A stretch of 64,000 nt of DNA. Origin: a bacterium. GTDB taxonomy: Bacteria > Patescibacteriota > Minisyncoccia > Moranbacterales > UBA2206. The stretch is taken from positions 25,184 to 89,183 of the forward strand of contig JAURXY010000034.1 of NCBI GenBank assembly GCA_030654225.1, given 5' to 3'. Each line of letters begins with the position of its first letter. Position 1 is the first letter of the stretch. Shown one piece after another: positions 9,556 through 50,160 of the stretch. A program made the translations under genes and the position numbers. Under the pieces are notes generated by a model that saw nothing but the letters and a program-made list of their open reading frames with translations, did no database searches and was not told where the DNA came from.

Positions 9556-10638
9556 TTAGGATAGAATTTCCTTTATTTCCTCTAAACTCTCCGCCATAAC
9601 TAATTTTCGGCGCAATTCTGAGGCTCCAGGGAAACCTTTGACATACCAACTCATATGCTTTCGAATTTCAAAAAGTCCTTGTTGACCCTTGTTTTTGTGG
9701 ATTAATTTTGCATGAAGAAGCATTATTTTCTTTACCCTGTTAAGTAAATTTTGCTCTGCAAAATTATTTTTCGTAATCGAAAAATACTTAACAGGGTGAA
9801 TTTTTTTAAAATCGTATTTTGCCCCCGTAGAGACGCCCCGACGGGGCGTCTCTACACAATTCAATAATTCTTTTATCTCCTCAAAAATCCACGGCTTACC
9901 CCAAGCGCCCCGGGCAATTCCAAGACCATCCAAAAGAGGATGGTCTTGCAAAATTTTCACGCCATCCTCAGCGGAATTTATCCCACCGTTCGCCAAAACG
10001 ATTTTTTCCGGAAACATTTTTTTGATTTTTTCAACAAGATTGAAATCTAGCGAACCAGAAAACCCACCTTCATATGTTCGACCATGAATCATAATGACCG
10101 AGTAGGGAAGATCAGCTGTGCTTTTGACAAAATCAAGGGCTGAAAATCCTAAAGCCGAGCTTTGAGAATTTTTTAAAAGCTCGGCTTTAGGATTTTCAAT
10201 ACCTGCTCGAATTTTTATAGACACCGGCAATTTGGTATTTTCACAAACAGCCGAAATAATTTCACGCGCCAATTTTTTTTGCATCATTAGCGCGCAACCC
10301 GAACCATGACCAAAAACTTTTTTGGCCGGACAACCAAAATTAATGTCAATTCCATCTGGCTTCACTATTTGCGAAATAATTTTAGTGGCCTTGGCAAAAT
10401 GCGCCGGGTCTTTCCCAAAAAGTTGCACCACGTATGGCCGTTCAGCTCTATTAAATTTTACTAATTCTAAAGTTTTTTGAGGTTTAAAAAATAAAGCGCT
10501 AACGCTTGCCATTTCCGAATATACCACATCCGCTCCATATCGCCGGCAAATTTGACGAAACGCACTGTCCGTTATGCCCGCCATCGGGGCTAGAGCCAGA
10601 ATTGGTTTTTTCAATTTTAACCAAAAATTTTTATTCAC
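9556..10638 (-). CDS. dus: tRNA-dihydrouridine synthase (probable GTG start) with an in-frame palindromic insertion
   Basis: 360 aa; 'LAPMAGITDSAFRQICRRYGADVVYSEM' plus FMN-binding TIM-barrel motifs. The 29-nt perfect palindrome at 9827-9855 encodes extra residues in 'ETPRRGVSTGA'. Confidence 0.9.
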   Translation of the reverse strand: MNKNFWLKLKKPILALAPMAGITDSAFRQICRRYGADVVYSEMASVSALFFKPQKTLELVKFNRAERPYVVQLFGKDPAHFAKATKIISQIVKPDGIDINFGCPAKKVFGHGSGCALMMQKKLAREIISAVCENTKLPVSIKIRAGIENPKAELLKNSQSSALGFSALDFVKSTADLPYSVIMIHGRTYEGGFSGSLDFNLVEKIKKMFPEKIVLANGGINSAEDGVKILQDHPLLDGLGIARGAWGKPWIFEEIKELLNCVETPRRGVSTGAKYDFKKIHPVKYFSITKNNFAEQNLLNRVKKIMLLHAKLIHKNKGQQGLFEIRKHMSWYVKGFPGASELRRKLVMAESLEEIKEILS

Positions 10639-18877: not shown

Positions 18878-20902
18878 TTAAATAATTGAAATTGGATCTC
18901 GATCGATTATCCAACCTGATTTGAGTTTTCTAATTTCTTTTTCTAATTCAATTGGAATTTTATCTGGAAATTTAACAATCATTTGCTTTCGCCAGCGTCC
19001 TCTGATTTTTGAGAGCAGGGGAGTGTGCGGTTCAGATATTTTTATTCCTTTTGCTGATTTTAATATTTCAAAAACTGCCAGACTTTCTTTTTCAACTTTT
19101 TCAAAATTATAATCCTGAAAAACCAATTTGACAATTTTCCCATACGGCGGAAAATTCAAAGCTTTTCGTTCCTCAATTATCTTTTGAAAAAAACTTTGAA
19201 AATTATTTTCTCCGGCCAATTGAATAATTTTATTTTCCGGTTGATATGTTTGAATAACCACTTCTCCAGGAAAGCGCGCTCCAGGGCGATTCACTCTCCC
19301 GGCAAGCTGAGAGATTATTTGAAAGGCCTTTTCTTCAGCCGAAAAATCAGGAAATGACAAAAGATTATCTGCATCTATTATACCAACCAATGACACGCGA
19401 GGCAAATCCCAGCCCTTGGAAATCATCTGCGTTCCAATCAAAATATCCGCCTCACCTTTGGAAAAAGCATCATAAATTTTTTCATGAAAATTTTGTTCTT
19501 TTGAAGAGGCTGTGTCAGCCACAATTATTTTGGCCGAAGGAAACAAACTCAAAATTTCTTTTTCTACTTTTTGCGTTCCCAATCCAACGTTTTTGAAACT
19601 TATCCCGCCACATTTCTCGCATTTTGGAAAAATACTCGTCTTATAATTACAATGATTGCATTTATAGAATCCGCCTTTTTCATAAACAAGCGCCCGCTCA
19701 CACTCAGGACACTTGAGCACTGCTTTGCACGCTTCACAAATTGAAAAACTACTCATACCTTGGCGATTGATAAACAAGATTGATTGCTGTTTATTTTTTA
19801 GCGCATATTCAATTTCACCTTTTAATTTTCTTGATATGCAAGTATAGTTTCCTGCCTGCCGATGAGGCAGGTTGGTCCAGCGTTCTTTTTTCATGTCAAC
19901 GATGGTGGTGTTTGGTATTTTATATTTAGTGTCTAATATTTCAAGATGTGGCAATTCTAATAATTTCAAATCTTTGTTAATCGCACGATAATATGATTCG
20001 ATACTTGGCGTAGCTGAGCCACGAACGATTTTCGCTTTATGAATCTCAGCTAATTTTTCTGCCACCGTTCTAGCGTCGTAACGCGGATTCATATCCCACT
20101 GTTTGAAAGACATATCCTGTTCTTCATCAATCACAATAAGCCCGAGTTTTTTAAACGGCGCAAAAACCGCCATGCGAGTACCAATAACTATTTTTATTTT
20201 TCCTGATTGAATGCCTTGCCAAGTAGAAAAAATCTGTCCCTTGGAAATATTACTACTTAAAACCCCAATTTCTTCCGGCTTAAAATATGCACCATATCTT
20301 TCCATGGCCTGCGGAGTCAAAGTTTTTTCTGGGATAATAATCAGAAATTGAAAATTCTTATTTATTTTTCTTAATTCAATAATTGAATTTATATAAACCT
20401 CCGTCTTCCCCGATCCCGCCGGACCAAAAAGCAAGTAATTTGTAATTGGTAATTTGTAATTGGTAATTTTTTTGACAGCATCTTTTTGCTCTTTTGTTAA
20501 TACAATATTTCCTCCTCTCCCTTCGGGAGAGGATGTCCGAAGGACAGGAGAGGGAGCTTTGCGTGATTTCATACGCTTTGGGACAAAATTTTTCATCACT
20601 ACACCCAATGGAGAAATATAATAATCAGAAATAAATTTTGCCAATTCTATTTGGCTATCGGAGAGAAAATTTTCAACGATTATTTTTTCAACTTTTTTTA
20701 GTTCAATATTACCCAATCTTTCAAAATCCTGCCTCGTCCCCAAAACAATTCCTTCCACACTTCGATGAAAAAGGGGAATCGAGACCAAGGTTCCAGTTGA
20801 AATTTTGACATCTGACAAATAGGAAAAAGACTGATGGGAAGACATCGGAATTTTTGTTAGTGGAACAATGTCGATAATAAACTTCTGCTTTTTGTTTGCC
20901 AT
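18878..20902 (-). CDS. priA: Primosomal protein N' (PriA helicase) carrying two in-frame hairpin insertions
   Basis: 674 aa; Walker A 'GPAGSGKTEVY', DEEQ box and a Cys4 zinc finger (CEACKAVLKCPECE...CNHC). Palindromes at 19851-19871 and 20511-20556 lie in-frame. Confidence 0.9.
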   Translation of the reverse strand: MANKKQKFIIDIVPLTKIPMSSHQSFSYLSDVKISTGTLVSIPLFHRSVEGIVLGTRQDFERLGNIELKKVEKIIVENFLSDSQIELAKFISDYYISPLGVVMKNFVPKRMKSRKAPSPVLRTSSPEGRGGNIVLTKEQKDAVKKITNYKLPITNYLLFGPAGSGKTEVYINSIIELRKINKNFQFLIIIPEKTLTPQAMERYGAYFKPEEIGVLSSNISKGQIFSTWQGIQSGKIKIVIGTRMAVFAPFKKLGLIVIDEEQDMSFKQWDMNPRYDARTVAEKLAEIHKAKIVRGSATPSIESYYRAINKDLKLLELPHLEILDTKYKIPNTTIVDMKKERWTNLPHRQAGNYTCISRKLKGEIEYALKNKQQSILFINRQGMSSFSICEACKAVLKCPECERALVYEKGGFYKCNHCNYKTSIFPKCEKCGGISFKNVGLGTQKVEKEILSLFPSAKIIVADTASSKEQNFHEKIYDAFSKGEADILIGTQMISKGWDLPRVSLVGIIDADNLLSFPDFSAEEKAFQIISQLAGRVNRPGARFPGEVVIQTYQPENKIIQLAGENNFQSFFQKIIEERKALNFPPYGKIVKLVFQDYNFEKVEKESLAVFEILKSAKGIKISEPHTPLLSKIRGRWRKQMIVKFPDKIPIELEKEIRKLKSGWIIDRDPISII

Positions 20903-21504: not shown

Positions 21505-22236
21505 ATGAATATTTTAGGAGTAAAAGTTGATAATCTCACTAAAAAAGAAATTCTGGAAAAAATCAGAACTTTTTTGACTGAACCAAAATTTCATCAGATC
21601 GCCACTATTAATCCGGAATTTATCTTGGAAACACAGAAAAATTTAGAGTTTAAAAATATTTTGAACACTTGCGATTTGAATGTAGCTGATGGAGTTGGGA
21701 TAAAATTGGCTTTTTGGCGATTTGGAAAAAATTTGAAAACTAGACTTGCTGGCGCAGATTTGATGCTGGAAATTTTGAAAATTGCCCAGACACAAAAATT
21801 TTCAATTTTTTTAGCTGTAAATAAGAATGGTTTGAGTAATTTTGAAGAAACAAAAAAAGCTATATTGAAAATTTATCCTAAATTAGAAATTAATGGGGGA
21901 AATATAGACACAAAAACAGAAGCTAAGCTTCTGTTTGACAGAAGCTTAGCTTCTGTTTTTGGACAGATACTTTTTTGCAACTTCGGCGCCCCGCATCAAG
22001 AACTCTTCATAAATTCACAAAAATGTGATACTATAAGACTAGCCATGGGAGTTGGCGGAAGTTTCGATTTTCTTACCAAAAAAGTCCGTCGCGCTCCGCA
22101 ATTTATGCAAATTATTGGCTTAGAATGGCTCTGGCGAATATTTCAACCGCAAGAATGGAAATTCAAAAAAGAAAGACTTCGAAAAATTTTTCAAGCGGTA
22201 ATAATTTTTCCAATTAAAATAATAATCAACAAATAA
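21505..22236 (+). CDS. WecB/TagA/CpsF-family glycosyltransferase (GT26) with an in-frame palindromic insertion
   Basis: 'MNILGVKVDNLTKKEILEKI' N-terminus is typical of TagA-like enzymes. The palindrome pair at 21917-21957 encodes 'TEAKLLFDRSLASV'. Confidence 0.75.
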   Translation: MNILGVKVDNLTKKEILEKIRTFLTEPKFHQIATINPEFILETQKNLEFKNILNTCDLNVADGVGIKLAFWRFGKNLKTRLAGADLMLEILKIAQTQKFSIFLAVNKNGLSNFEETKKAILKIYPKLEINGGNIDTKTEAKLLFDRSLASVFGQILFCNFGAPHQELFINSQKCDTIRLAMGVGGSFDFLTKKVRRAPQFMQIIGLEWLWRIFQPQEWKFKKERLRKIFQAVIIFPIKIIINK

Positions 22237-23371: not shown

Positions 23372-24940
23372 ATGAACAAAATCAGAACTAGATTTGCGCC
23401 GTCGCCGACGGGATACTTGCATATTGGGGGTCTTCGGACTGCACTGTATGATTATTTATTCGCCAAAAAAAATGGTGGTGATTTTTTGTTGAAAATTGAA
23501 GATACTGATCGAAAAAGATTTGTTGAAGGTGCGGTGGAAAAATTAATAATTTCATTAGATTTTCTAGGATTGGAAAGAAATGAAGGAGTAATGTTAAACA
23601 ATAATACCAATGGTCAGGAATCAAAAAATTATCCCAGAGTTTTTGAAGTAGGCGAATATGGACCTTATATTCAATCAGAAAAATTAGAAATTTACAAAAA
23701 ACATGTTGATGAATTAGTGAAAAATGGCCATGCCTATTATTGTTTTTGCGAACCAAAAAGACTTGAGGAAATGAGATCTGAACAAACCGCCCAAAAACAA
23801 CCCCCTATTTATGATAGATTTTGTTTGCAAAATGTTAGCGAAGAAGAAATAAATAAAAATCTAAAAAATAATTGTCCCTATACTATTCGAATTAAAGTTC
23901 CGCACGACGAAATAATTGAAGTGGATGACGAAATCAGAGGACGCGTTAAATTTAATACTAATTTAGTCACCGATCAAATACTTTTGAAATCTGACGGCTT
24001 TCCCACTTATCATTTAGCTAGCATCATAGATGACCATGATATGCAAATCACACATGTTATTCGTGGCGAAGAATGGCTTCCGAGCATTCCAATTCATATT
24101 TTATTATATCGCTATTTCAATTGGGAAGCTCCGAAATTTGCTCACTTACCACTTCTTCTTAATCTAGACAAATCCAAACTTTCTAAGCGTCAGGGGGATG
24201 TGGCGGTGGAAGATTACATTAAAAACGGATATTTAAAAGAAGCTCTTATTAATTTTGTAGCCTTTTTAGGTTGGAATCCTGGGAAAGGAGAAACGCAAGA
24301 AATTTTCACGCTTGAAGAATTAGTGGAGAAATTTGATCTGACTCATGTTCACAAGGCGGGCGCAGTTTTTGACATCAAAAAATTAGATTGGATAAATTCA
24401 CAGTGGATCAAGAAACTTTCCATCGAAGAGTTATATCAAAAATCTTTGCCATTTCTTGAGGAAAAAGAATTTTATAAAAATGCTAGTGCAGAAAAAAAAT
24501 CCGAAGACTATATCAAAAAAATCCTTTCCATTGAACAGGACCGTCTCACAAATTTGTCAGAAGTGGGGGAGAGCAATCAGTTCTTTTTTAGGGATACAAA
24601 TTTTGACAAAGAACTTTTACGCTGGAAAGATATGAATGACGAAGACTTGAAAAAATCACTAGAAAAATCTCTCCGCGTTTTGGAAAATATAACGGACGAA
24701 AATTGGACGCGCGAAAATTTGGAAAAAATTCTGATGGAAAAGGCGGATGAAAAGCCTGCCTCGCCGGCTCGCCTCGCTGGAGCTATGGCGAAGCGGGCAG
24801 GCGGGAGGGGAGAGCTCCTCTGGCCACTGCGCGCCACGCTTACGGGAGAGAAAAAATCACCTTCACCATTTGAATGTGCGTGGGTGCTTGGGAAAGAAGA
24901 AACATTATCGAGATTAAAAAATACAATAGGCAAAATATAA
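23372..24940 (+). CDS. gltX: Glutamyl-tRNA synthetase with a GC-rich, MITE-derived in-frame insertion
   Basis: 522 aa; 'RFAPSPTGYLHIGG' and 'KLSKR' motifs. The 24751-24850 segment shares about 30 nt with the MITE family A arm. Confidence 0.9.
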   Translation: MNKIRTRFAPSPTGYLHIGGLRTALYDYLFAKKNGGDFLLKIEDTDRKRFVEGAVEKLIISLDFLGLERNEGVMLNNNTNGQESKNYPRVFEVGEYGPYIQSEKLEIYKKHVDELVKNGHAYYCFCEPKRLEEMRSEQTAQKQPPIYDRFCLQNVSEEEINKNLKNNCPYTIRIKVPHDEIIEVDDEIRGRVKFNTNLVTDQILLKSDGFPTYHLASIIDDHDMQITHVIRGEEWLPSIPIHILLYRYFNWEAPKFAHLPLLLNLDKSKLSKRQGDVAVEDYIKNGYLKEALINFVAFLGWNPGKGETQEIFTLEELVEKFDLTHVHKAGAVFDIKKLDWINSQWIKKLSIEELYQKSLPFLEEKEFYKNASAEKKSEDYIKKILSIEQDRLTNLSEVGESNQFFFRDTNFDKELLRWKDMNDEDLKKSLEKSLRVLENITDENWTRENLEKILMEKADEKPASPARLAGAMAKRAGGRGELLWPLRATLTGEKKSPSPFECAWVLGKEETLSRLKNTIGKI

Positions 24941-28013: not shown

Positions 28014-28092
28014 TGTCATTCCCGTGAAAACGGGAATCTAGTCTCAAATCACTAAGTTTCTACACTAGATTCCCGCCTACGCGGGAATGACA
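28014..28092. mobile_element. MITE-like element, family B (TIR tgtcattcccg / cgggaatgaca), copy 1
   Basis: tgtcattcccgtgaaaacgggaatctagtctcaaatcactaagtttctacactagattcccgcctacgcgggaatgaca; between iscS and iscR. Confidence 0.75.
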
Positions 28093-28501: not shown

Positions 28502-28582
28502 ACTAATTTAGTATGCTTTAATTATAATCTTTTTGAAATAATCTGTCAACAGTGTTATAATTAAAATGTAATTGTAATTTTT

Positions 28583-28662
28583 ATGTCATCCTCGCGAATG
28601 CGGGGATCCAGTCTCAAATCATTAATTTTCTACACTAGATTCCCGCATTCGCGGGAATGACA
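28583..28662. mobile_element. MITE-like element, family B, copy 2
   Basis: tgtcatcctcgcgaatgcggggatccagtctcaaatcattaattttctacactagattcccgcattcgcgggaatgaca. The two copies flank iscR. Confidence 0.75.
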
Positions 28663-28671
28663 AAAATTTTT

Positions 28672-38198: not shown

Positions 38199-39359
38199 TC
38201 AATGACTCATCTGCAAAAAAATTTCTAGCAATTTTTCCGCAGTTTTTTGCCAGGAAAATTTTTCAGCTTGCAACTTTCCATTTTTCGACAAACTATCTCG
38301 CACCATCTCATTGGTCATTATTTCCTTGATTTTTTGGGTCAACTCTCCGGGAATTTCTGGTTTGAAATATAGCGTTGCGTTATCTGCAATTTCTCTGTGT
38401 GGTGGAATATCGGAAACTATGGTTGGCACACCTAGCGACATCGCTTCGATAATTGGCATACCAAAACCTTCATAAAATGAAGGGAACACAAAAATATCCG
38501 CACCTTTGATTATCCCTGCCTTATCTTCTTCATCAATATACCCAGGAAAGAAAACGTCTTCAATTAAATTATTTTTTTTAGTTACTTCATCTATTAATTT
38601 GTCATAATTATACCCCTTACCTCCGGCGATAACTAATTTCAAAGAATTAAGTTTTAACTTTAAGTTGAGTTCGGTTTTTAACAGTGCCACTGCTTCGATA
38701 AGCGCTGGTATATTTTTTCTTGGTTGTAATGTGCCGATATATAGAATGTATCTTTCTGGAAGATTATATTTTATCTTGATTGCTTTTATTTTTTCCTCGG
38801 ATATATCTTGCGTCGAAAAATCCTCTGACACCGCATTATGAAACCAATCAACTTTTTTTGGATCAGTTTTATAATATTTAATTATTTCGTCTTGAGTGAA
38901 TTGGGACACCGCAATTATCTTGTCCGCACGCTTGAGACTTTTTGGAATCAAAGTTTTTAGAAATAACAAATCCCAAAATTTGATAAATTGCGGATAAAAA
39001 TTGAAAGAAATGTCATGAATAATTGTGACGATTTTTATTTTTTTCGGCACGAACCATGGTGTGATATATTGCGTGAGATAAACATCGACTGGTTTTTTTC
39101 GCAAATACATTGGAAGCGTCCAAAAATTCCAACTAAATTTGTTTTTCGTTGGAAGTGAAATTATTTCAAAATTTTTCTGATTATCTATTCCAAGACTTAC
39201 TCCAGTATTCTGTAATACTGTAGTATCAGTTATGTCGGTGAATAATTTATATTCATTCTCACTATCTATTTTAGCTAAATTTTTAGTCAAATTGAAAAAC
39301 ACCGCTTCGCTGCCAGTTTGTTTTTTGCCTATAAGTCGAATGTCAATACCTATTTTCAT
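38199..39359 (-). CDS. Glycosyltransferase family 4
   Basis: 'FPSFYEGFGMPIIEAMSLGVPTIVSD' EX7E motif. Start placed at the internal Met (MKIGIDIR) to avoid overlapping the upstream ORF. Confidence 0.75.
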   Translation of the reverse strand: MKIGIDIRLIGKKQTGSEAVFFNLTKNLAKIDSENEYKLFTDITDTTVLQNTGVSLGIDNQKNFEIISLPTKNKFSWNFWTLPMYLRKKPVDVYLTQYITPWFVPKKIKIVTIIHDISFNFYPQFIKFWDLLFLKTLIPKSLKRADKIIAVSQFTQDEIIKYYKTDPKKVDWFHNAVSEDFSTQDISEEKIKAIKIKYNLPERYILYIGTLQPRKNIPALIEAVALLKTELNLKLKLNSLKLVIAGGKGYNYDKLIDEVTKKNNLIEDVFFPGYIDEEDKAGIIKGADIFVFPSFYEGFGMPIIEAMSLGVPTIVSDIPPHREIADNATLYFKPEIPGELTQKIKEIMTNEMVRDSLSKNGKLQAEKFSWQKTAEKLLEIFLQMSH

Positions 39360-40957
39360 TTTTTTATTTGTGCTATTCCCAGCCAGAGCCAAAAAAATCC
39401 CAAAAATATTCCAGCATTAAAAAAATTGGGAACAATGATCGCAAACCAAGAAATTATTAAAAATAAACTAATAATTATTTGCGAATCATTTTGTGCTGCG
39501 TAATATTCTTTTATCGCTCTACCTAGTATATACGATAGCATAATCACAAAGGACGCAAAACCTAGAATTCCACTGCCAAGCCAAATTTCCAAAAATATAT
39601 TGGAAGAATTGAAGTTCATGCCTCGACCGTCTTCTCCTAAAATTTTCCCAATACTCCCCCAACCTATTCCTAAAATCGGGTGATTTTTTATCTCCTGCCA
39701 AGATCTTTGATAAATAAAGCTTCGAATTGAAATATTTGGATCTTTTCTAAAAATCTCCGTTACTAAATTTCCCTGATTTTTTTCTATTTCAATTTCTTCC
39801 AAGTTAATATGTCGACAACTATATTTTTCCAATTCAGAAATATTTTCAATTTCTTTTGGTAGGGAACGCAAATTTGCGTTCCCTACATTACAGGAAACGG
39901 TGATTTTCTGCATTCCTGATCCGGTTGACTGAACACGATTAAATAATTGGAAATTAGTTAGATGAAAAATATAAACCAGACCAACAGCAACAAAAAGCGC
40001 CGGGACTATAATCAGCTTTATTTTAATAGTTTCCCTCCATTGCCAATTTTTGGGATGGAATTTTAAATTTGTAAAAATAGTGAAAAGAAAAATAAATGTC
40101 ACGGCAAATGCACCGAGCCAAGCGCTTCTGCTTACAGTTAGGATAAGTAAAACATATGAAATAGTAAGTAATAAAAATAAACCGCCCAACAGAAGCTTAG
40201 CTTCGGGAGCTCCCGAAGCTAAGCTTCTGTCTGAGTCTTCGAAGTAATATATCAAAACATAAATTAAACTTATAACTAGCACTATAAAAATTCCCAACCA
40301 ATCCGCCTCCGAAAAAGTCGCATTTGGTCGTCCGGGCATCGTTTCAAAACTATTTAGCCCTCGCAAGAACCAAATATTTTGCCAAATTCCATAAAACACA
40401 ACGACCAAAGAAGAGCTAAGAAAAAATGGCACTACTTTTTTCAAGTCCTCGATATTTTGAATATAATTTCGCACTAAAAAATATAGCGCGGAAAATGTGG
40501 CCAGGATTATCGCCAATTTTAAACTTAAAATTTTATTCGACGCATTTATAATACTAAAAAGTCCGCCGATATTTATTATGACAATTAACCAATCATACCA
40601 TTCCAATTTAACTAATTTGAAATTCAGTTTTCCGGAAAGCAATCTGATTATTATGGCAGTAATTGTGAGTGCGCCGATAAATTGATATGGCCTGATTGCA
40701 ATTCCAAGCTCCAATGGCGCCAGATTGATGTTTTCTAGCGCAATCGTTCCAACAAAAAACAGAAACGCCCACCCAGGACGGTATAGCGCCAAAAACAAAG
40801 TCAGAATTGCAAAGAAAACAAAATCCCCTATTCGCAAAGGAATAATCCCTAAATTATTAAAAATAATCAAAAATAAAACTAAAGCCACATTCACCAAAAT
40901 CAACCAGCTCTTTGGTTTGTTGAGGTTATTAATTATTTTTTCAAAAAATAAATTCAT
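39356..40957 (-). CDS. O-antigen ligase/polymerase-like polytopic membrane protein (Wzy/WaaL family) with two in-frame palindromic insertions
   Basis: 533 aa with at least 10 TM helices and a large periplasmic loop. Palindromes at 39860-39887 and 40189-40238 are in-frame. Confidence 0.55.
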   Translation of the reverse strand: MNLFFEKIINNLNKPKSWLILVNVALVLFLIIFNNLGIIPLRIGDFVFFAILTLFLALYRPGWAFLFFVGTIALENINLAPLELGIAIRPYQFIGALTITAIIIRLLSGKLNFKLVKLEWYDWLIVIINIGGLFSIINASNKILSLKLAIILATFSALYFLVRNYIQNIEDLKKVVPFFLSSSLVVVFYGIWQNIWFLRGLNSFETMPGRPNATFSEADWLGIFIVLVISLIYVLIYYFEDSDRSLASGAPEAKLLLGGLFLLLTISYVLLILTVSRSAWLGAFAVTFIFLFTIFTNLKFHPKNWQWRETIKIKLIIVPALFVAVGLVYIFHLTNFQLFNRVQSTGSGMQKITVSCNVGNANLRSLPKEIENISELEKYSCRHINLEEIEIEKNQGNLVTEIFRKDPNISIRSFIYQRSWQEIKNHPILGIGWGSIGKILGEDGRGMNFNSSNIFLEIWLGSGILGFASFVIMLSYILGRAIKEYYAAQNDSQIIISLFLIISWFAIIVPNFFNAGIFLGFFWLWLGIAQIKK

Positions 40958-42160
40958 TTACATTTCTTCAATTATATTCAAAATCTTCTCACTAAATTTT
41001 TCCCACGAAAATTGCTTGGCTCGTTCTTGACCTCTGTTTTTTAGTTGTTCTCGCAAGTCATGATTAGTCAAAACATTCTTCAAAACCATCGCGATATCAG
41101 TTATGTCATCAGGATTACAATATAGCACACTATCTCCACCAACTTCTGGCAGTGAGGAAACTTTTGAAGTGATGACAGGCGTGCCAACATTCATTGCTTC
41201 CAGAATTTGCATGCCGAAACCTTCATAATGTGATGGATAGACAAACATAACAGCCTCACTAAACAGTGCTGGCAAATCTTTTTGCGGAACTTCACCCAAA
41301 AGAATCACGTGTTTCGTTAAATTTAATTCTTTAAGAATTCTTTCTATCGGCGTTGCCAGGCTCAAACTTTCCGGCAAAACTTTCCCGTATATCGCTAACT
41401 TCGGAAAATTTGGCAAGAAATTTTCTTTTTTGTTTCTTTCCAAAAGCAACTTATATGCCCGCACCACTCCTTCGACATTTTTCCGCACTTCATATCCCCC
41501 ACCAGCCAAAACATATCCGGGATTTATTTTGTATTTCTTCAAAATATTCGCATGTCCAGCATTCGTAGCGCCGGTTCGCGAAGCGAATAACTCATCTACA
41601 TCTATATAATTAGTAGTAATTTTGTCTGCGCCTATATTTAAGTGTTCAATTAGATCTTTTTCTGTCCTTTTGGAAACAGCAACAATTTTGTCCGCCTTTT
41701 TTATCCCATATTCTGTTAATTTCCAATACAATTTCTTTCTAAAGTTATCCAGATATTTGGGAAACAATTTTGGAATAATATCATGCACCAGCATAATATG
41801 CTTCACTTCCTTATATGGTTGAATGCCCGCCTGCCGGCGAGGCAGGGAAGTAGGACATTGGTACATACTAACAAAAACATCGCAACCGTCTTTTTTGACA
41901 AGGCGCGGCAAAAGGATTTTTTCCCACCAAATTTTTCGAATCAAATCATCGCGCTTATAAACTGGTAGGAATATTTTCTTGCTAAAATTATCAGGAAGCT
42001 TAAAATCTTTTGGAATATCTTCCTCCAAATACAAAACAAATTCAAAATCATTCTGCTTATATCTTACCAACATTTTCAAAAAATTGGTTGTCACTTGCCC
42101 GATGCCCGTATGAGGCTTTCGAAGATAACTTGCATTGATTCCTACTTTTTTCTTTTTCAT
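40958..42160 (-). CDS. Glycosyltransferase family 4 with an in-frame hairpin insertion
   Basis: 400 aa; 'YPSHYEGFGMQILEAMNVGTPVI'. The hairpin at 41826-41848 encodes 'LPRRQAG'. Confidence 0.75.
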   Translation of the reverse strand: MKKKKVGINASYLRKPHTGIGQVTTNFLKMLVRYKQNDFEFVLYLEEDIPKDFKLPDNFSKKIFLPVYKRDDLIRKIWWEKILLPRLVKKDGCDVFVSMYQCPTSLPRRQAGIQPYKEVKHIMLVHDIIPKLFPKYLDNFRKKLYWKLTEYGIKKADKIVAVSKRTEKDLIEHLNIGADKITTNYIDVDELFASRTGATNAGHANILKKYKINPGYVLAGGGYEVRKNVEGVVRAYKLLLERNKKENFLPNFPKLAIYGKVLPESLSLATPIERILKELNLTKHVILLGEVPQKDLPALFSEAVMFVYPSHYEGFGMQILEAMNVGTPVITSKVSSLPEVGGDSVLYCNPDDITDIAMVLKNVLTNHDLREQLKNRGQERAKQFSWEKFSEKILNIIEEM

Positions 42161-44636: not shown

Positions 44637-46595
44637 ATGTTAAATTTTATTTACAGTCAAATTTTATTTTATATATCTATTTTAGTAATTCTGTTTGTCC
44701 CAGGATATTTTTTGCTTTTGGCGGTTTTTGGTAAATATGAAAATCAGATAAGTAAATTAGAAAGATTTATTTTTTCTTTTGGATTAAGTTTAATCGTTGT
44801 TGATTTTATCGCTTTTGCTTATTCCAAACTAAACGTTCCGATTACTGCCCTCTCTTCAATTTTGGGGGTACTGTTTTTTGCCATAATTTGCCTTGCATTT
44901 AGACACTGGGTGTCTAAAAAGACACCCAGTGTCTCTGTAGGCATTCAAGAAGAAGATAAATTATTTTCTTTTTCCAAAAATCAATTTCTCCTCCTTTTGC
45001 TTCTTTTGTTTTTGACAATTTTTATTAAAACTGCCTATCTCAGTGGAACAGTTGCCCCAACTGCCACTGACATGGGTCATCACACCTATTGGGCTAAAGA
45101 AATGTCCACCACTCACAAACTTCCTGTTTATGAAGGAATGCCTGATTTTATCATTGGTGAACATATTGCTTTGTCAGAGATAAATATGATCAGTGGAAAA
45201 AGTTTCTTTTCAGCTTTCCCGGTTATTTTTTTGCTACTGATTAATCTTCTTAGTATCCTCACTGTTTTTATCTTGACTTTACGAATTTTCAAAAACAAGA
45301 ATGTTGCTATTCTTTCAATTCTTTTTTTGGGAGTTCTTTTTGCTGTTTCCTCACCTCAGGCTAAATTTGTTAGTGGTGGTGTAATAGGAAATATCTTGGG
45401 AAATCTTCTGATGCCTATGGCCTTTTATTTTTATTTCAGAGCTACAGAATTTCTAAATGTAGGGGTTCAATTTATTGAACCCACTAATAAACCGATTGGG
45501 TTTGATAAATCAAACCCCTACATTTTAAATGATAGTCAGAAATTTCTTTCCCTTGGAATTTTTTCCACTTTCGGACTTTTTTATACGCATCATCTCACTG
45601 CTTTTATATTTTTATTTATTTTTTCCTTACTTATTATTATTTTCCTAGCTCTAAATTACAAAGACCTGAAAAATATTTTTGGAAAAATATTTGATTTGGT
45701 TTTTTCCGTTCCTGTTATCACAACTTTTGCAGTCGGATTGATTTTTTTCTTTTTTATTTTCACTCCAAATTATATGCAGACTAGTGCGGTAGAAACCGCT
45801 GTCGGCACACCCTCAAAAGCCACTCGCGAAGGATTGAGTATGGACAACATAAAATCTTCCGTGGGCGAAGTTCGTCTGGCTCTTGGATTTTTAGGACTTC
45901 TGATTTTATCTTTGAATTATAAAAGAAAAAATTTCGGCTTCACTTTGATTTCTGCTTGGACAGTTATGCTTTTTATCATGTCCACTAAACCAGAATTAAT
46001 TTTCATCAACTTGCCTAGTTCTCGAATTGGAAATTATATGAGCTATCCCCTTGCCATCCTTTCTGCCTATGGATTATTTTCTATTTTCAATCCCAGTTTA
46101 GTTGATTCAAAAAAAATAATTCCCAAGAAATTTCTAGCTGGCTCATTTTTGATTATCCTAATTTTTGTTTTAACTAGCGGGATAAGCGACAGCGTTCAAG
46201 CTTTCAAAAAAGCCCCTGACTTCACTCCCGTTATTGAAACTTATGACGCTTCTAATTATTTAGTGAAAAATACTAACGAGGAAGATGTGATTCTAAAAGA
46301 TCATAATTATATCACTGCAGATTCTTGGATAAAATTGTTTTTTATGCAAGGTTATAGATACCCTCAGTCTCGTGGCTATTTCAAGCGTTATGAAGATCCC
46401 ACTAAACCTCGTGAAATGTGCACCCTCTATATGATTTCCAATCCGGCCGGTCAAGACGCCCAGGATTGTTTTTTTGAAACAAAAACTAATTATATTTTGG
46501 TTAATCCAAAATTTGATAGCTCCCAATTTGTAAAACTCAAAAATTTTAGCAAAGTTTATAACAATGGCGATGTAGCTGTTTATTATAAAAAATAA
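44637..46595 (+). CDS. Large polytopic membrane protein, possibly a third GT-C-type glycosyltransferase
   Basis: 652 aa; about 12 TM helices then a soluble C-terminal domain. Conserved-looking loop 'TATDMGHHTYWAKEM'. Confidence 0.45.
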   Translation: MLNFIYSQILFYISILVILFVPGYFLLLAVFGKYENQISKLERFIFSFGLSLIVVDFIAFAYSKLNVPITALSSILGVLFFAIICLAFRHWVSKKTPSVSVGIQEEDKLFSFSKNQFLLLLLLLFLTIFIKTAYLSGTVAPTATDMGHHTYWAKEMSTTHKLPVYEGMPDFIIGEHIALSEINMISGKSFFSAFPVIFLLLINLLSILTVFILTLRIFKNKNVAILSILFLGVLFAVSSPQAKFVSGGVIGNILGNLLMPMAFYFYFRATEFLNVGVQFIEPTNKPIGFDKSNPYILNDSQKFLSLGIFSTFGLFYTHHLTAFIFLFIFSLLIIIFLALNYKDLKNIFGKIFDLVFSVPVITTFAVGLIFFFFIFTPNYMQTSAVETAVGTPSKATREGLSMDNIKSSVGEVRLALGFLGLLILSLNYKRKNFGFTLISAWTVMLFIMSTKPELIFINLPSSRIGNYMSYPLAILSAYGLFSIFNPSLVDSKKIIPKKFLAGSFLIILIFVLTSGISDSVQAFKKAPDFTPVIETYDASNYLVKNTNEEDVILKDHNYITADSWIKLFFMQGYRYPQSRGYFKRYEDPTKPREMCTLYMISNPAGQDAQDCFFETKTNYILVNPKFDSSQFVKLKNFSKVYNNGDVAVYYKK

Positions 46596-49575: not shown

Positions 49576-50160
49576 ATGAAACTAATCACAATTTCTGGTC
49601 TTGATGGCTCAGGGAAATCAACTCAAATTGAAATGCTAAAAAAGCATTTAGAATCGCAAAGTAAGCGGGTTTTTTATTTTCATGCTGGGCAATTTAGTAT
49701 TAGTAAGATTTATAATATTTTAAGACCACACAAGATTATTACTGGCAAACATCATGAAAGCGTGGTCAAAGCTAATGTTTTTCAAATTTATCTTCGTCGT
49801 TTTGCATTACTGATAGATTTGGTGCGCTTTAAGTTATTACATAATAAATTACGTAATAAAAATTATGATTATATTTTGAGTGACCGGTATTTTTATGATA
49901 GTGTGGTTAATATTGAATTTTTATGTAGGGAACGCATATATGCGTTCCCTACGTGGATTGTAAATCCCGATTTGGCAATCTATCTTCAAACTGATCCGGA
50001 AATAATAATGCAAAGAGAAAGAAAGCCTGATCAAGGAATTGATTATCTCAAAAAGAAAAAAAATATATATGACGCAAAAATTCTCGATTGGAATATGAAA
50101 CTAATTAATGGCAATCGAGGCCAAGAAGAAATTTTTAAAGAAATAAAATCATTTTTATGA
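49576..50160 (+). CDS. tmk: Thymidylate kinase-like P-loop kinase with an in-frame palindromic insertion
   Basis: 194 aa; 'ISGLDGSGKSTQ' P-loop and 'LSDRYFYDS' DRY motif. The palindrome at 49925-49952 encodes 'RERIYAFP'. Confidence 0.6.
   Translation: MKLITISGLDGSGKSTQIEMLKKHLESQSKRVFYFHAGQFSISKIYNILRPHKIITGKHHESVVKANVFQIYLRRFALLIDLVRFKLLHNKLRNKNYDYILSDRYFYDSVVNIEFLCRERIYAFPTWIVNPDLAIYLQTDPEIIMQRERKPDQGIDYLKKKKNIYDAKILDWNMKLINGNRGQEEIFKEIKSFL

Follow-up and report, generated by a model that had tools for sequence, protein, structure and literature searches.

The closest described systems are the REP/REPIN repeats and their RAYT (TnpA_REP) transposases of Proteobacteria, which the literature regards as long-lived extragenic residents of mainly proteobacterial genomes (PMC3116915; PMC3733652). 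The Rickettsia palindromic elements (RPEs) have been mentioned alongside REPs (PMC3733652). In fact, REP/REPIN-RAYT systems, the so-called "REPtrons", intragenic REPs and in-frame RPEs are all already known. REP sequences with RAYT transposases of Proteobacteria were reportedly described by Nunvar in 2010, and the RPEs are said to have been described by Ogata et al. in 2000 and by Claverie and Ogata in 2003. RPEs are about 100–150 bp in length, encode 30–50 amino acids and are restricted to Rickettsia, and we know of no cognate transposase for RPE-1.

Here we analyzed two palindromes, referred to as site 1 and site 2, in a 64-kb window (the whole stretch of DNA under analysis) from a Candidatus Moranbacteria/Parcubacteria bacterium of the CPR with a GC content of about 34%. 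We consider it probable that both are copies of a REPIN-like repeat, whose family is dispersed in Patescibacteria (CPR), is most likely mobilised by RAYTs and is kept in tolerant loops. Like REPs and REPINs, the repeats consist of short hairpins, two of which in inverted orientation make up a larger one, and they are dispersed and multi-copy (the multiple copies being seen in related MAGs, with two doublets in the 64-kb window). Intergenic copies are found shortly downstream of gene ends, several RAYT-REP pairs are possible per genome, there is no target-site duplication, and a cognate Y1/HUH transposase gene flanked by its own hairpins, as in a "REPtron", is present in other genomes analyzed here. 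Occasional intragenic copies have already been reported for REPs. However, the doublets are only 30–51 nt in length and the family has no GTAG or CGTC tag. Nor is their location extragenic, since both window copies lie in genes and about half of the family is intragenic and in frame.

The RPEs resemble our elements in being in-frame palindromes in unrelated, often essential genes, placed in surface loops and apparently tolerated. They differ in size, as the elements here measure 42–51 nt with inserts of 11–17 amino acids, and also in that a candidate transposase has been identified here. By inspection there is no evident sequence similarity, and the window elements are an analogue of the RPEs rather than a member. 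IS200/IS605 elements and hairpin-ended MITEs share the Y1/HUH enzyme, the recognition of single-stranded hairpins and the lack of target-site duplication. However, the ends of IS200/IS605 elements are two different subterminal hairpins and their transposase travels along, whereas here the units form self-complementary doublets at a distance from any transposase gene. A classical MITE was ruled out, as neither the window sites nor the related copies have a target-site duplication.

The two doublets of the window and their host genes

Site 1 (21911..21961; no strand is assigned to features unless given) is a REPIN-like doublet, a perfect inverted repeat of 24+3+24 nt with the sequence CAAAAACAGAAGCTAAGCTTCTGT TTG ACAGAAGCTTAGCTTCTGTTTTTG. 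On the plus strand its left hairpin unit with a central A (ACAGAAGC-TAA-GCTTCTGT, 21916..21934) is read as T-E-A-K-L-L, and its right unit with a central T (ACAGAAGC-TTA-GCTTCTGT, 21938..21956) is read as (D)R-S-L-A-S, with the loop TTG (21935..21937) between them. The 17-mers reported in the initial annotation were recovered (CAGAAGCTAAGCTTCTG at 21917–21933 and CAGAAGCTTAGCTTCTG at 21939–21955), but their spacer is TTTGA and not "ttgaca". The 117 nt around site 1 have a predicted RNA fold of -43.3 kcal/mol. The host gene (21505..22236, plus strand) encodes a WecG/TagA-family glycosyltransferase (Pfam PF03808, 106 bits). Its start at ATG 21505 agrees with the orthologues, while the ORF lister begins at TTG 21478. 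The peptide derived from site 1 is TEAKLLFDRSLAS, inside the 252-aa WecG/TagA ORF.

This insert lies in the loop between strands E129-134 and E155-159 of the TagA protein. The AF2 model has a mean pLDDT of 88, and its lowest block (57) comprises residues 141–150, inside the insert. The stretch from "EINGxNxD" to "ILFCNFG" is hypervariable among orthologues, and EAKLL..RSLAS is present in only one of 40 of them, the close relative P0002, which is 87% identical. Other lineages carry palindrome-type peptides in this loop, namely HAELVSASHEILKQVQDDK, SIQPYKE, LDSRLRGNDK and VIASEAKQSR..LPRND, and at the DNA level the L121 orthologue has a different double hairpin at the site 1 position. The L117 orthologue has 33 unrelated nt without a hairpin in place of the 45 nt of the window, and therefore site 1 is a loop replacement and not a simple addition; the event first described as an insertion is not a clean one. 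A clean empty site was not found at either of the two loops, as every orthologue compared holds other sequence there.

The copy in P0002 (L116) lies at the same TagA site, with all 48 of 48 stem bases identical and flanks about 90% identical. Its loop is CAA (L116 1011–1013), the exact reverse complement of TTG in the window (21935–21937), and this inversion within the coding region alters two residues, from FD to SN. The site 1 element is older than the split of the window and L116 lineages, and the loop has been inverted since. Minute hairpin-loop inversions were reportedly described in chloroplast non-coding DNA by Kelchner and Wendel in 1996. As in our case, the loop of a perfect hairpin is exactly reverse-complemented between close relatives, but the chloroplast inversions concern non-coding DNA, whereas the TTG/CAA flip here is coding and changes two residues. 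The L116 copy also bears on the question of whether the palindromes could be artefacts of sequencing or assembly (chimeras or linkers, for example), which their perfect arms and the resemblance of AAGCT(W)AGCTT to a filled-in HindIII junction might suggest. An independent JGI assembly whose flanks have diverged has this element at the identical position, no reading frame is broken, and hundreds of copies come from MAGs of unrelated projects; we regard the probability of an artefact as negligible.

Site 2 (40189..40230) is a REPIN-like doublet that forms a perfect 42-nt palindrome, ACAGAAGCTTAGCTTC GGGAGCTCCC GAAGCTAAGCTTCTGT, with the core hairpins GAAGCTTAGCTTC (40192..40204) and GAAGCTAAGCTTC (40215..40227) on either side of the central palindrome GGGAGCTCCC (40205..40214). 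A perfect 40-mer palindrome had been noted here before and is indeed found at 40190–40229, but the end had been set too far, at 40238, and the real extent is 42 nt. The host gene (39356..40957, minus strand) encodes a membrane protein of the O-antigen ligase/Wzy_C family (Pfam PF04932, 60 bits). The peptide RSLASGAPEAKLL is read from the minus strand in the 533-aa Wzy_C ORF and falls in a hypervariable region with a hydrophobic segment on either side, ..LIYVLIYYFEDSD(RSLASGAPEAKLL)LGGLFLLLTISYVL.. In the alignment it is present in none of 45 Wzy orthologues, whose hypervariable stretch is full of other palindrome-type peptides. The peptides of both sites are therefore not ancestral, judged by the orthologue comparison that the initial annotation had proposed.

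Another family of palindromes, headed by GTAG and with the sequence GTAGGGAACGCA(AATT/TATA)TGCGTTCCCTAC, was observed in the window at 39859–39886 and 49925–49952. The first copy lies in the same Wzy gene, is read as VGNANLRSL and is common to a subset of the orthologues, the baseline being xxNINLPE. The second copy lies in an unrelated gene (49576–50160).

Both sites are built from the hairpin ACAGAAGC-TWA-GCTTCTGT, and the 19-nt units ACAGAAGCTWAGCTTCTGT are short palindromes able to form a hairpin. With at most two mismatches the 17-mer occurs four times in the window against 0.02 expected, and none of 100 shuffles reached four; the 13-mer core likewise has four copies in the 64 kb, and there are only two doublets. 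The earlier proposal that both sites belong to one repeat family is borne out, as ACAGAAGCTTAGCTTC is common to both and the family occurs at 115 or more loci elsewhere. However, they are different variants and not one element inserted in both orientations. Whichever strand is read, the central-A hairpin comes before the central-T hairpin in site 1 and after it in site 2, and the centres are TTG and GGGAGCTCCC, respectively. The argument from orientation fails because a perfect palindrome reads identically on both strands. Site 2 is of the Moranbacteria 42-nt type except for its leading central-T hairpin, as the related 42-nt copies elsewhere have the central-A hairpin first. These copies also carry paired changes in the centre (CGGAGCTCCG, TGGAGCTCCA and GGGAATTCCC). 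The target-site duplications that had been suggested as a check were not found, with no direct repeat at either border of site 1 or site 2, or at related copies.

The two proteins do contain the same peptide words (EAKLL and RSLAS), as had been pointed out, and both sites are read in the sole stop-free frame. The sequences GAAGCTAAG and GAAGCTTAG put TAA or TAG into the other frames, and the words are shared because these stops leave one open frame per strand. The recurrence of the same words in many proteins might also be taken as a functional peptide module under selection at the protein level. But besides following from the stops, the words are replaced by KLSF..KLSF where some proteins read the same DNA differently, about half of the copies are intergenic, orthologues do without the peptide and the AF2 confidence is low in this region. 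Moreover, the copies show the opposite of synonymous DNA divergence with a conserved peptide. We give such a module hardly any chance.

Hairpins are abundant in the window as a whole, with 18 perfect ones (stem at least 10, loop at most 10) versus 2.4 ± 1.6 in 30 dinucleotide shuffles. Nine of them have a GC content of at least 0.35, versus 0.37 in shuffles, and seven of these nine are inside genes. A search of the whole window against Rfam returned a tRNA only, with no match at site 1 or site 2.

Several further palindromes of the window were recorded, some of which do begin with GTAG. A 360-aa ORF (9556–10638, minus strand) holds three separate palindromes (9827–9855, 9921–9948 and 10141–10198), including GTAGAGACGCCCCGACGGGGCGTCTCTAC and a 28+2+28 inverted repeat. 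The gene at 44637–46595 has in-gene palindromes at 44901–44934 and 45455–45525, comprising AGACACTGGGTGTCT..AGACACCCAGTGTCT and a double hairpin with GTAGGGGTTCAATTTATTGAACCC. GC-rich hairpins are present in further housekeeping genes, at 20504–20563 (PriA), 24752–24811 (GltX, with a fold of -35.6 kcal/mol) and 41801–41851 (GT4 gene, 40958–42160), and encode the peptides APSPVLRTSSPEGRGG, ASPARLAGAMAKRAGG and LPRRQAGIQPYKE; SIQPYKE also turns up in TagA loops of other lineages. Hairpins of the type GTCATTCCCG..CGGGAATC form intergenic doublets at 28014–28092 and 28580–28666, which resemble the Neisseria REPIN sequence ATTCCCGCGCAGGCGGGAATC (bioRxiv 10.1101/2021.07.10.451892).

The repeat family in other genomes

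We scanned one genome per species with the pattern GAAGCTWAGCTTC-N(0-30)-GAAGCTWAGCTTC and found the doublet GAAGCTWAGCTTC...GAAGCTWAGCTTC at no fewer than 115 loci, mostly in Patescibacteria MAGs. By our estimate, which assumes uniform base composition, 596 Gb would contain about 0.02 such doublets by chance. Several MAGs contain many copies, including at least 15 loci in JBBTTI01 and at least 13 in CAZNTM01. The family core is GAAGC-TWA-GCTTC, and nearly all listed copies are inverted doublets, with a few that have the two units in direct orientation. The hairpin feet differ between copies (ACA-, AC-, G-, A- or C-GAAGC), and a conserved GTAG or CGTC tag at the 5' foot is absent from the family copies compared. 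The Moranbacteria-type copies follow the consensus ACAGAAGCTAAGCTTC[GCT]GGA[GA][CT]TCC[CGA]GAAGCTTAGCTTCTGT, with paired changes in the centre and frequent A-run/T-run flanks. Some TPA MAGs with the doublet bear the database names Gammaproteobacteria, Bdellovibrionales and Planctomycetia, from which we claim no spread across phyla. The viral contigs searched gave no match to the doublet, and thus there is no sign of phage carriage.

It is also conceivable that nothing was transferred between loci and that rapidly evolving loops gave rise to the palindromes themselves, through template switching (hairpin-templated mutation). The perfect arms fit this, the flip from TTG to CAA shows hairpin-mediated rearrangement at work at this very place, and the second palindrome of the Wzy gene (39859–39886) looks elaborated from the ancestral xxNINLPE motif. 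But it fails to explain identical units of 16–19 nt at two unrelated loci of the window, or the same units at the 115 or more loci elsewhere and beside RAYT genes. We consider such an origin very unlikely, and template switching as the sole cause is disfavoured.

About half of the family lies in genes. ORFs of at least 120 codons are spanned by 65 of the 124 listed copies, nearly all of them reading EAKL[LP]..[GR]SLAS, and in a second count 53 of 122 listed copies are inside called ORFs. The host proteins of in-frame copies include LeuRS, PheT, ArgRS, UvrB, NadE and a UvrD-like helicase, so the envelope genes that the initial annotation had stressed are incidental hosts. UvrD/PcrA-like helicase orthologues from three MAGs have the doublet at one protein position (L070 6781–6812, L087 408–439 and L101 4144–4175), with small differences between the copies (LEAKLLSGSLAS, LEAKLPSGSLAS and LEAKLPLGSLAS). 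Either the insertion is old and was inherited by all three, or the position is a target that is hit repeatedly.

The intergenic listed copies lie a median of 17.5 nt after the 3' end of a gene, and their settings are unidirectional in 42 cases, convergent in 10 and divergent in four. The same distribution just 3' of genes has been described for REPs (PMC3733652). This position is also what makes a selected cis-element worth considering, which might bind a protein, signal DNA uptake or form an RNA hairpin that works as a terminator, an attenuator or an RNase III site. Such an element would have been spread by recombination, and its coding copies would regulate TagA and Wzy. The intergenic copies lie about 17 nt after gene ends, and many have A-run/T-run flanks like bidirectional terminators. 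Site 1 itself is flanked by AAAAA and TTTTT and carries a terminator-like flag, on the minus strand only. Moreover, 48 of its 48 stem bases agree between lineages that are about 90% identical in the flanks, and many lineages have kept the 13-nt core. However, site 2 has neither a T-run nor a terminator flag, no Rfam match was found in the window for either site, and the position is not conserved among orthologues. The density is too low for an uptake sequence, with four 13-mers in 64 kb, whereas known DNA uptake sequences occur about once per kb. The specific association with RAYT genes is not predicted by a cis-element either. On balance we regard this explanation as unlikely, though it is the one among the alternatives that deserves most attention. 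A secondary role as RNA hairpin or terminator may exist and is compatible with REPIN-like repeats mobilised by RAYTs.

RAYT-type transposase genes and their hairpins

An unbiased all-against-all clustering of 855 neighbouring ORFs yielded a 9-member Y1_Tnp cluster, and every gene of the cluster with both ends in the locus is bordered by hairpins. Those of L114, L113 and L098 are bordered by GAAGCTWAGCTTC-type hairpins. In L114 one hairpin precedes the ATG by 15 nt, another is internal and two more stand at the 3' end. The hairpin of L098 follows its gene at a distance of 16 nt, and L113 has one within the gene and one directly behind it. The 17-mer of the window itself occurs in the L113 gene, as ACAGAAGCTAAGCTTCTG, where it is translated as TEAKLLEASRSLAS. 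The Y1_Tnp genes of L032, L060/L093 and L104 are each bordered by their own, different hairpin. A CGTC-headed hairpin, AATCGTCCCGAGACCCGATGTCGGGACGAT, was seen on both sides of the RAYT-like gene of L093, and its downstream copy only was seen in L060; CGTC repeats have been described as not associated with transposase genes (PMC3733652). The window itself contains no Y1_Tnp gene, and tblastn of seven RAYT-like proteins against it gave nothing below E 0.2.

The CPR transposases match Pfam PF01797 with 26–44 bits (cut-off 23). The HUH motif NH.H is invariant, and conserved tyrosines are present as candidates for the catalytic residue. These proteins are distant from the RAYTs described so far, as their sole NCBIfam match, REP_Tyr_transpos, scores 24–40 bits and is below the equivalog cut-off of 80, and a sequence search of the PDB with a CPR transposase gave no match. 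In a fold search with the AF2 model (pLDDT 86) the best PDB match was 4ER8_A (E 8e-6, target-normalised TM 0.69), which is the E. coli RAYT bound to a REP hairpin (structure 4ER8), and the matches to IS608/ISDra2 TnpA were weaker (E at least 3e-3). Judged by the predicted fold, the CPR transposases are closer to TnpA_REP than to IS200/IS605 TnpA. More than 7000 homologues were found; the named organisms are all Patescibacteria, and some of the proteins are called RayT by JGI.

Most of the RAYT-like genes examined (P0241–P0360) differ from known RAYT genes in carrying an in-frame hairpin or double hairpin at a fixed internal loop, at about nt 150–260, before the HUH motif. Examples are found at L113 5183–5226, L114 5201–5219, L122 4188–4235, L123 4158–4193 and L124 4192–4231. 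Among the best 120 of more than 7000 homologues, the pre-HUH loop visibly encodes a palindrome-type peptide in most, such as EAKLPIGSLAS, ELSSEASELSS or KLSFGYPKLSF. We then compared 80 independent metagenome loci, where 32 genes have a clear internal hairpin. The internal 12-mer recurs about 2–150 nt from the gene ends in 25 of these 32 loci versus 26 of 970 for foreign elements, and the internal hairpin thus co-varies with the gene-flanking hairpins. In L122 and L123 the compensated variant GGAGCTWAGCTCC is present both inside and beside the RAYT-like gene. The rule that the flanking hairpin equals the internal one is frequent and not universal, as the RAYTs of L205 and L206 have an internal GAAGCT-type hairpin (with an EAKL..SLAS-type peptide) in a gene not flanked by the same hairpin. 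The internal hairpin may serve as a master copy or in autoregulation.

A proposed route and its meaning for CPR genomes

In the explanation that we prefer, the hairpin would form on single-stranded DNA. A cognate RAYT would then recognise and cut it, the candidate substrate being single-stranded ACAGAAGCTAAGCTTCTGT and the candidate enzyme a protein such as P0241, and the cut hairpin would re-insert without target-site duplication. Lack of such a duplication is the expectation for Y1 transposases, for which the single-strand hairpin route is established, and by analogy the window elements may have followed the same cut-and-paste route. To our knowledge, RAYT-driven movement of REPINs has never been demonstrated in vivo, even in E. 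coli. The genomes of this group are about 93% coding, and thus many landings would be inside genes, where a copy would have to pass three filters to survive. First, it could be read only in the frame without TAA or TAG, which gives EAKL..SLAS. Second, the net change in length would be a multiple of three. Third, the loop would tolerate any sequence, and the TagA and Wzy loops would be such sites. These three filters explain the pattern without any selected peptide function. A resident palindrome would stay perfect, and its loop could flip. We infer that a RAYT moved the copies of site 1 and site 2 and that both are probably neutral passengers.

In the searchable literature we found no REPIN-RAYT system in CPR/Patescibacteria, no intragenic share of about 50% for such repeats, no doublets of 30–51 nt without a GTAG or CGTC tag and no in-frame, co-varying hairpin inside a RAYT gene. 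Likewise, the literature search gave nothing relevant on in-frame palindromes of CPR and no match to the 13-mer core. The REPIN-like repeat is probably new for CPR, and unusually intragenic.

A system of the same kind as the proteobacterial ones would now be present in CPR genomes, which are ultra-small and leave hardly any space between genes, and about half of its copies are translated, including those in PheT, ArgRS, LeuRS and UvrB. This accounts for the odd peptides EAKLL and RSLAS in CPR protein predictions and pinpoints hypervariable loops that confuse alignments, and the repeats may serve as natural markers for insertion-tolerant sites. The co-varying internal hairpin offers a way to test how RAYTs recognise their repeats and perhaps also seed them. 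A more far-reaching proposal is a CPR REPIN-RAYT system in which each RAYT keeps its own co-evolving in-frame hairpin, perhaps as a protected master copy or for autoregulation, and the repeats systematically colonise and overwrite the few tolerant loops of essential and envelope proteins, which we think rather improbable. If it were true, palindromic repeats would be a main source of loop variation in the minimal proteomes of CPR, and not rare accidents.
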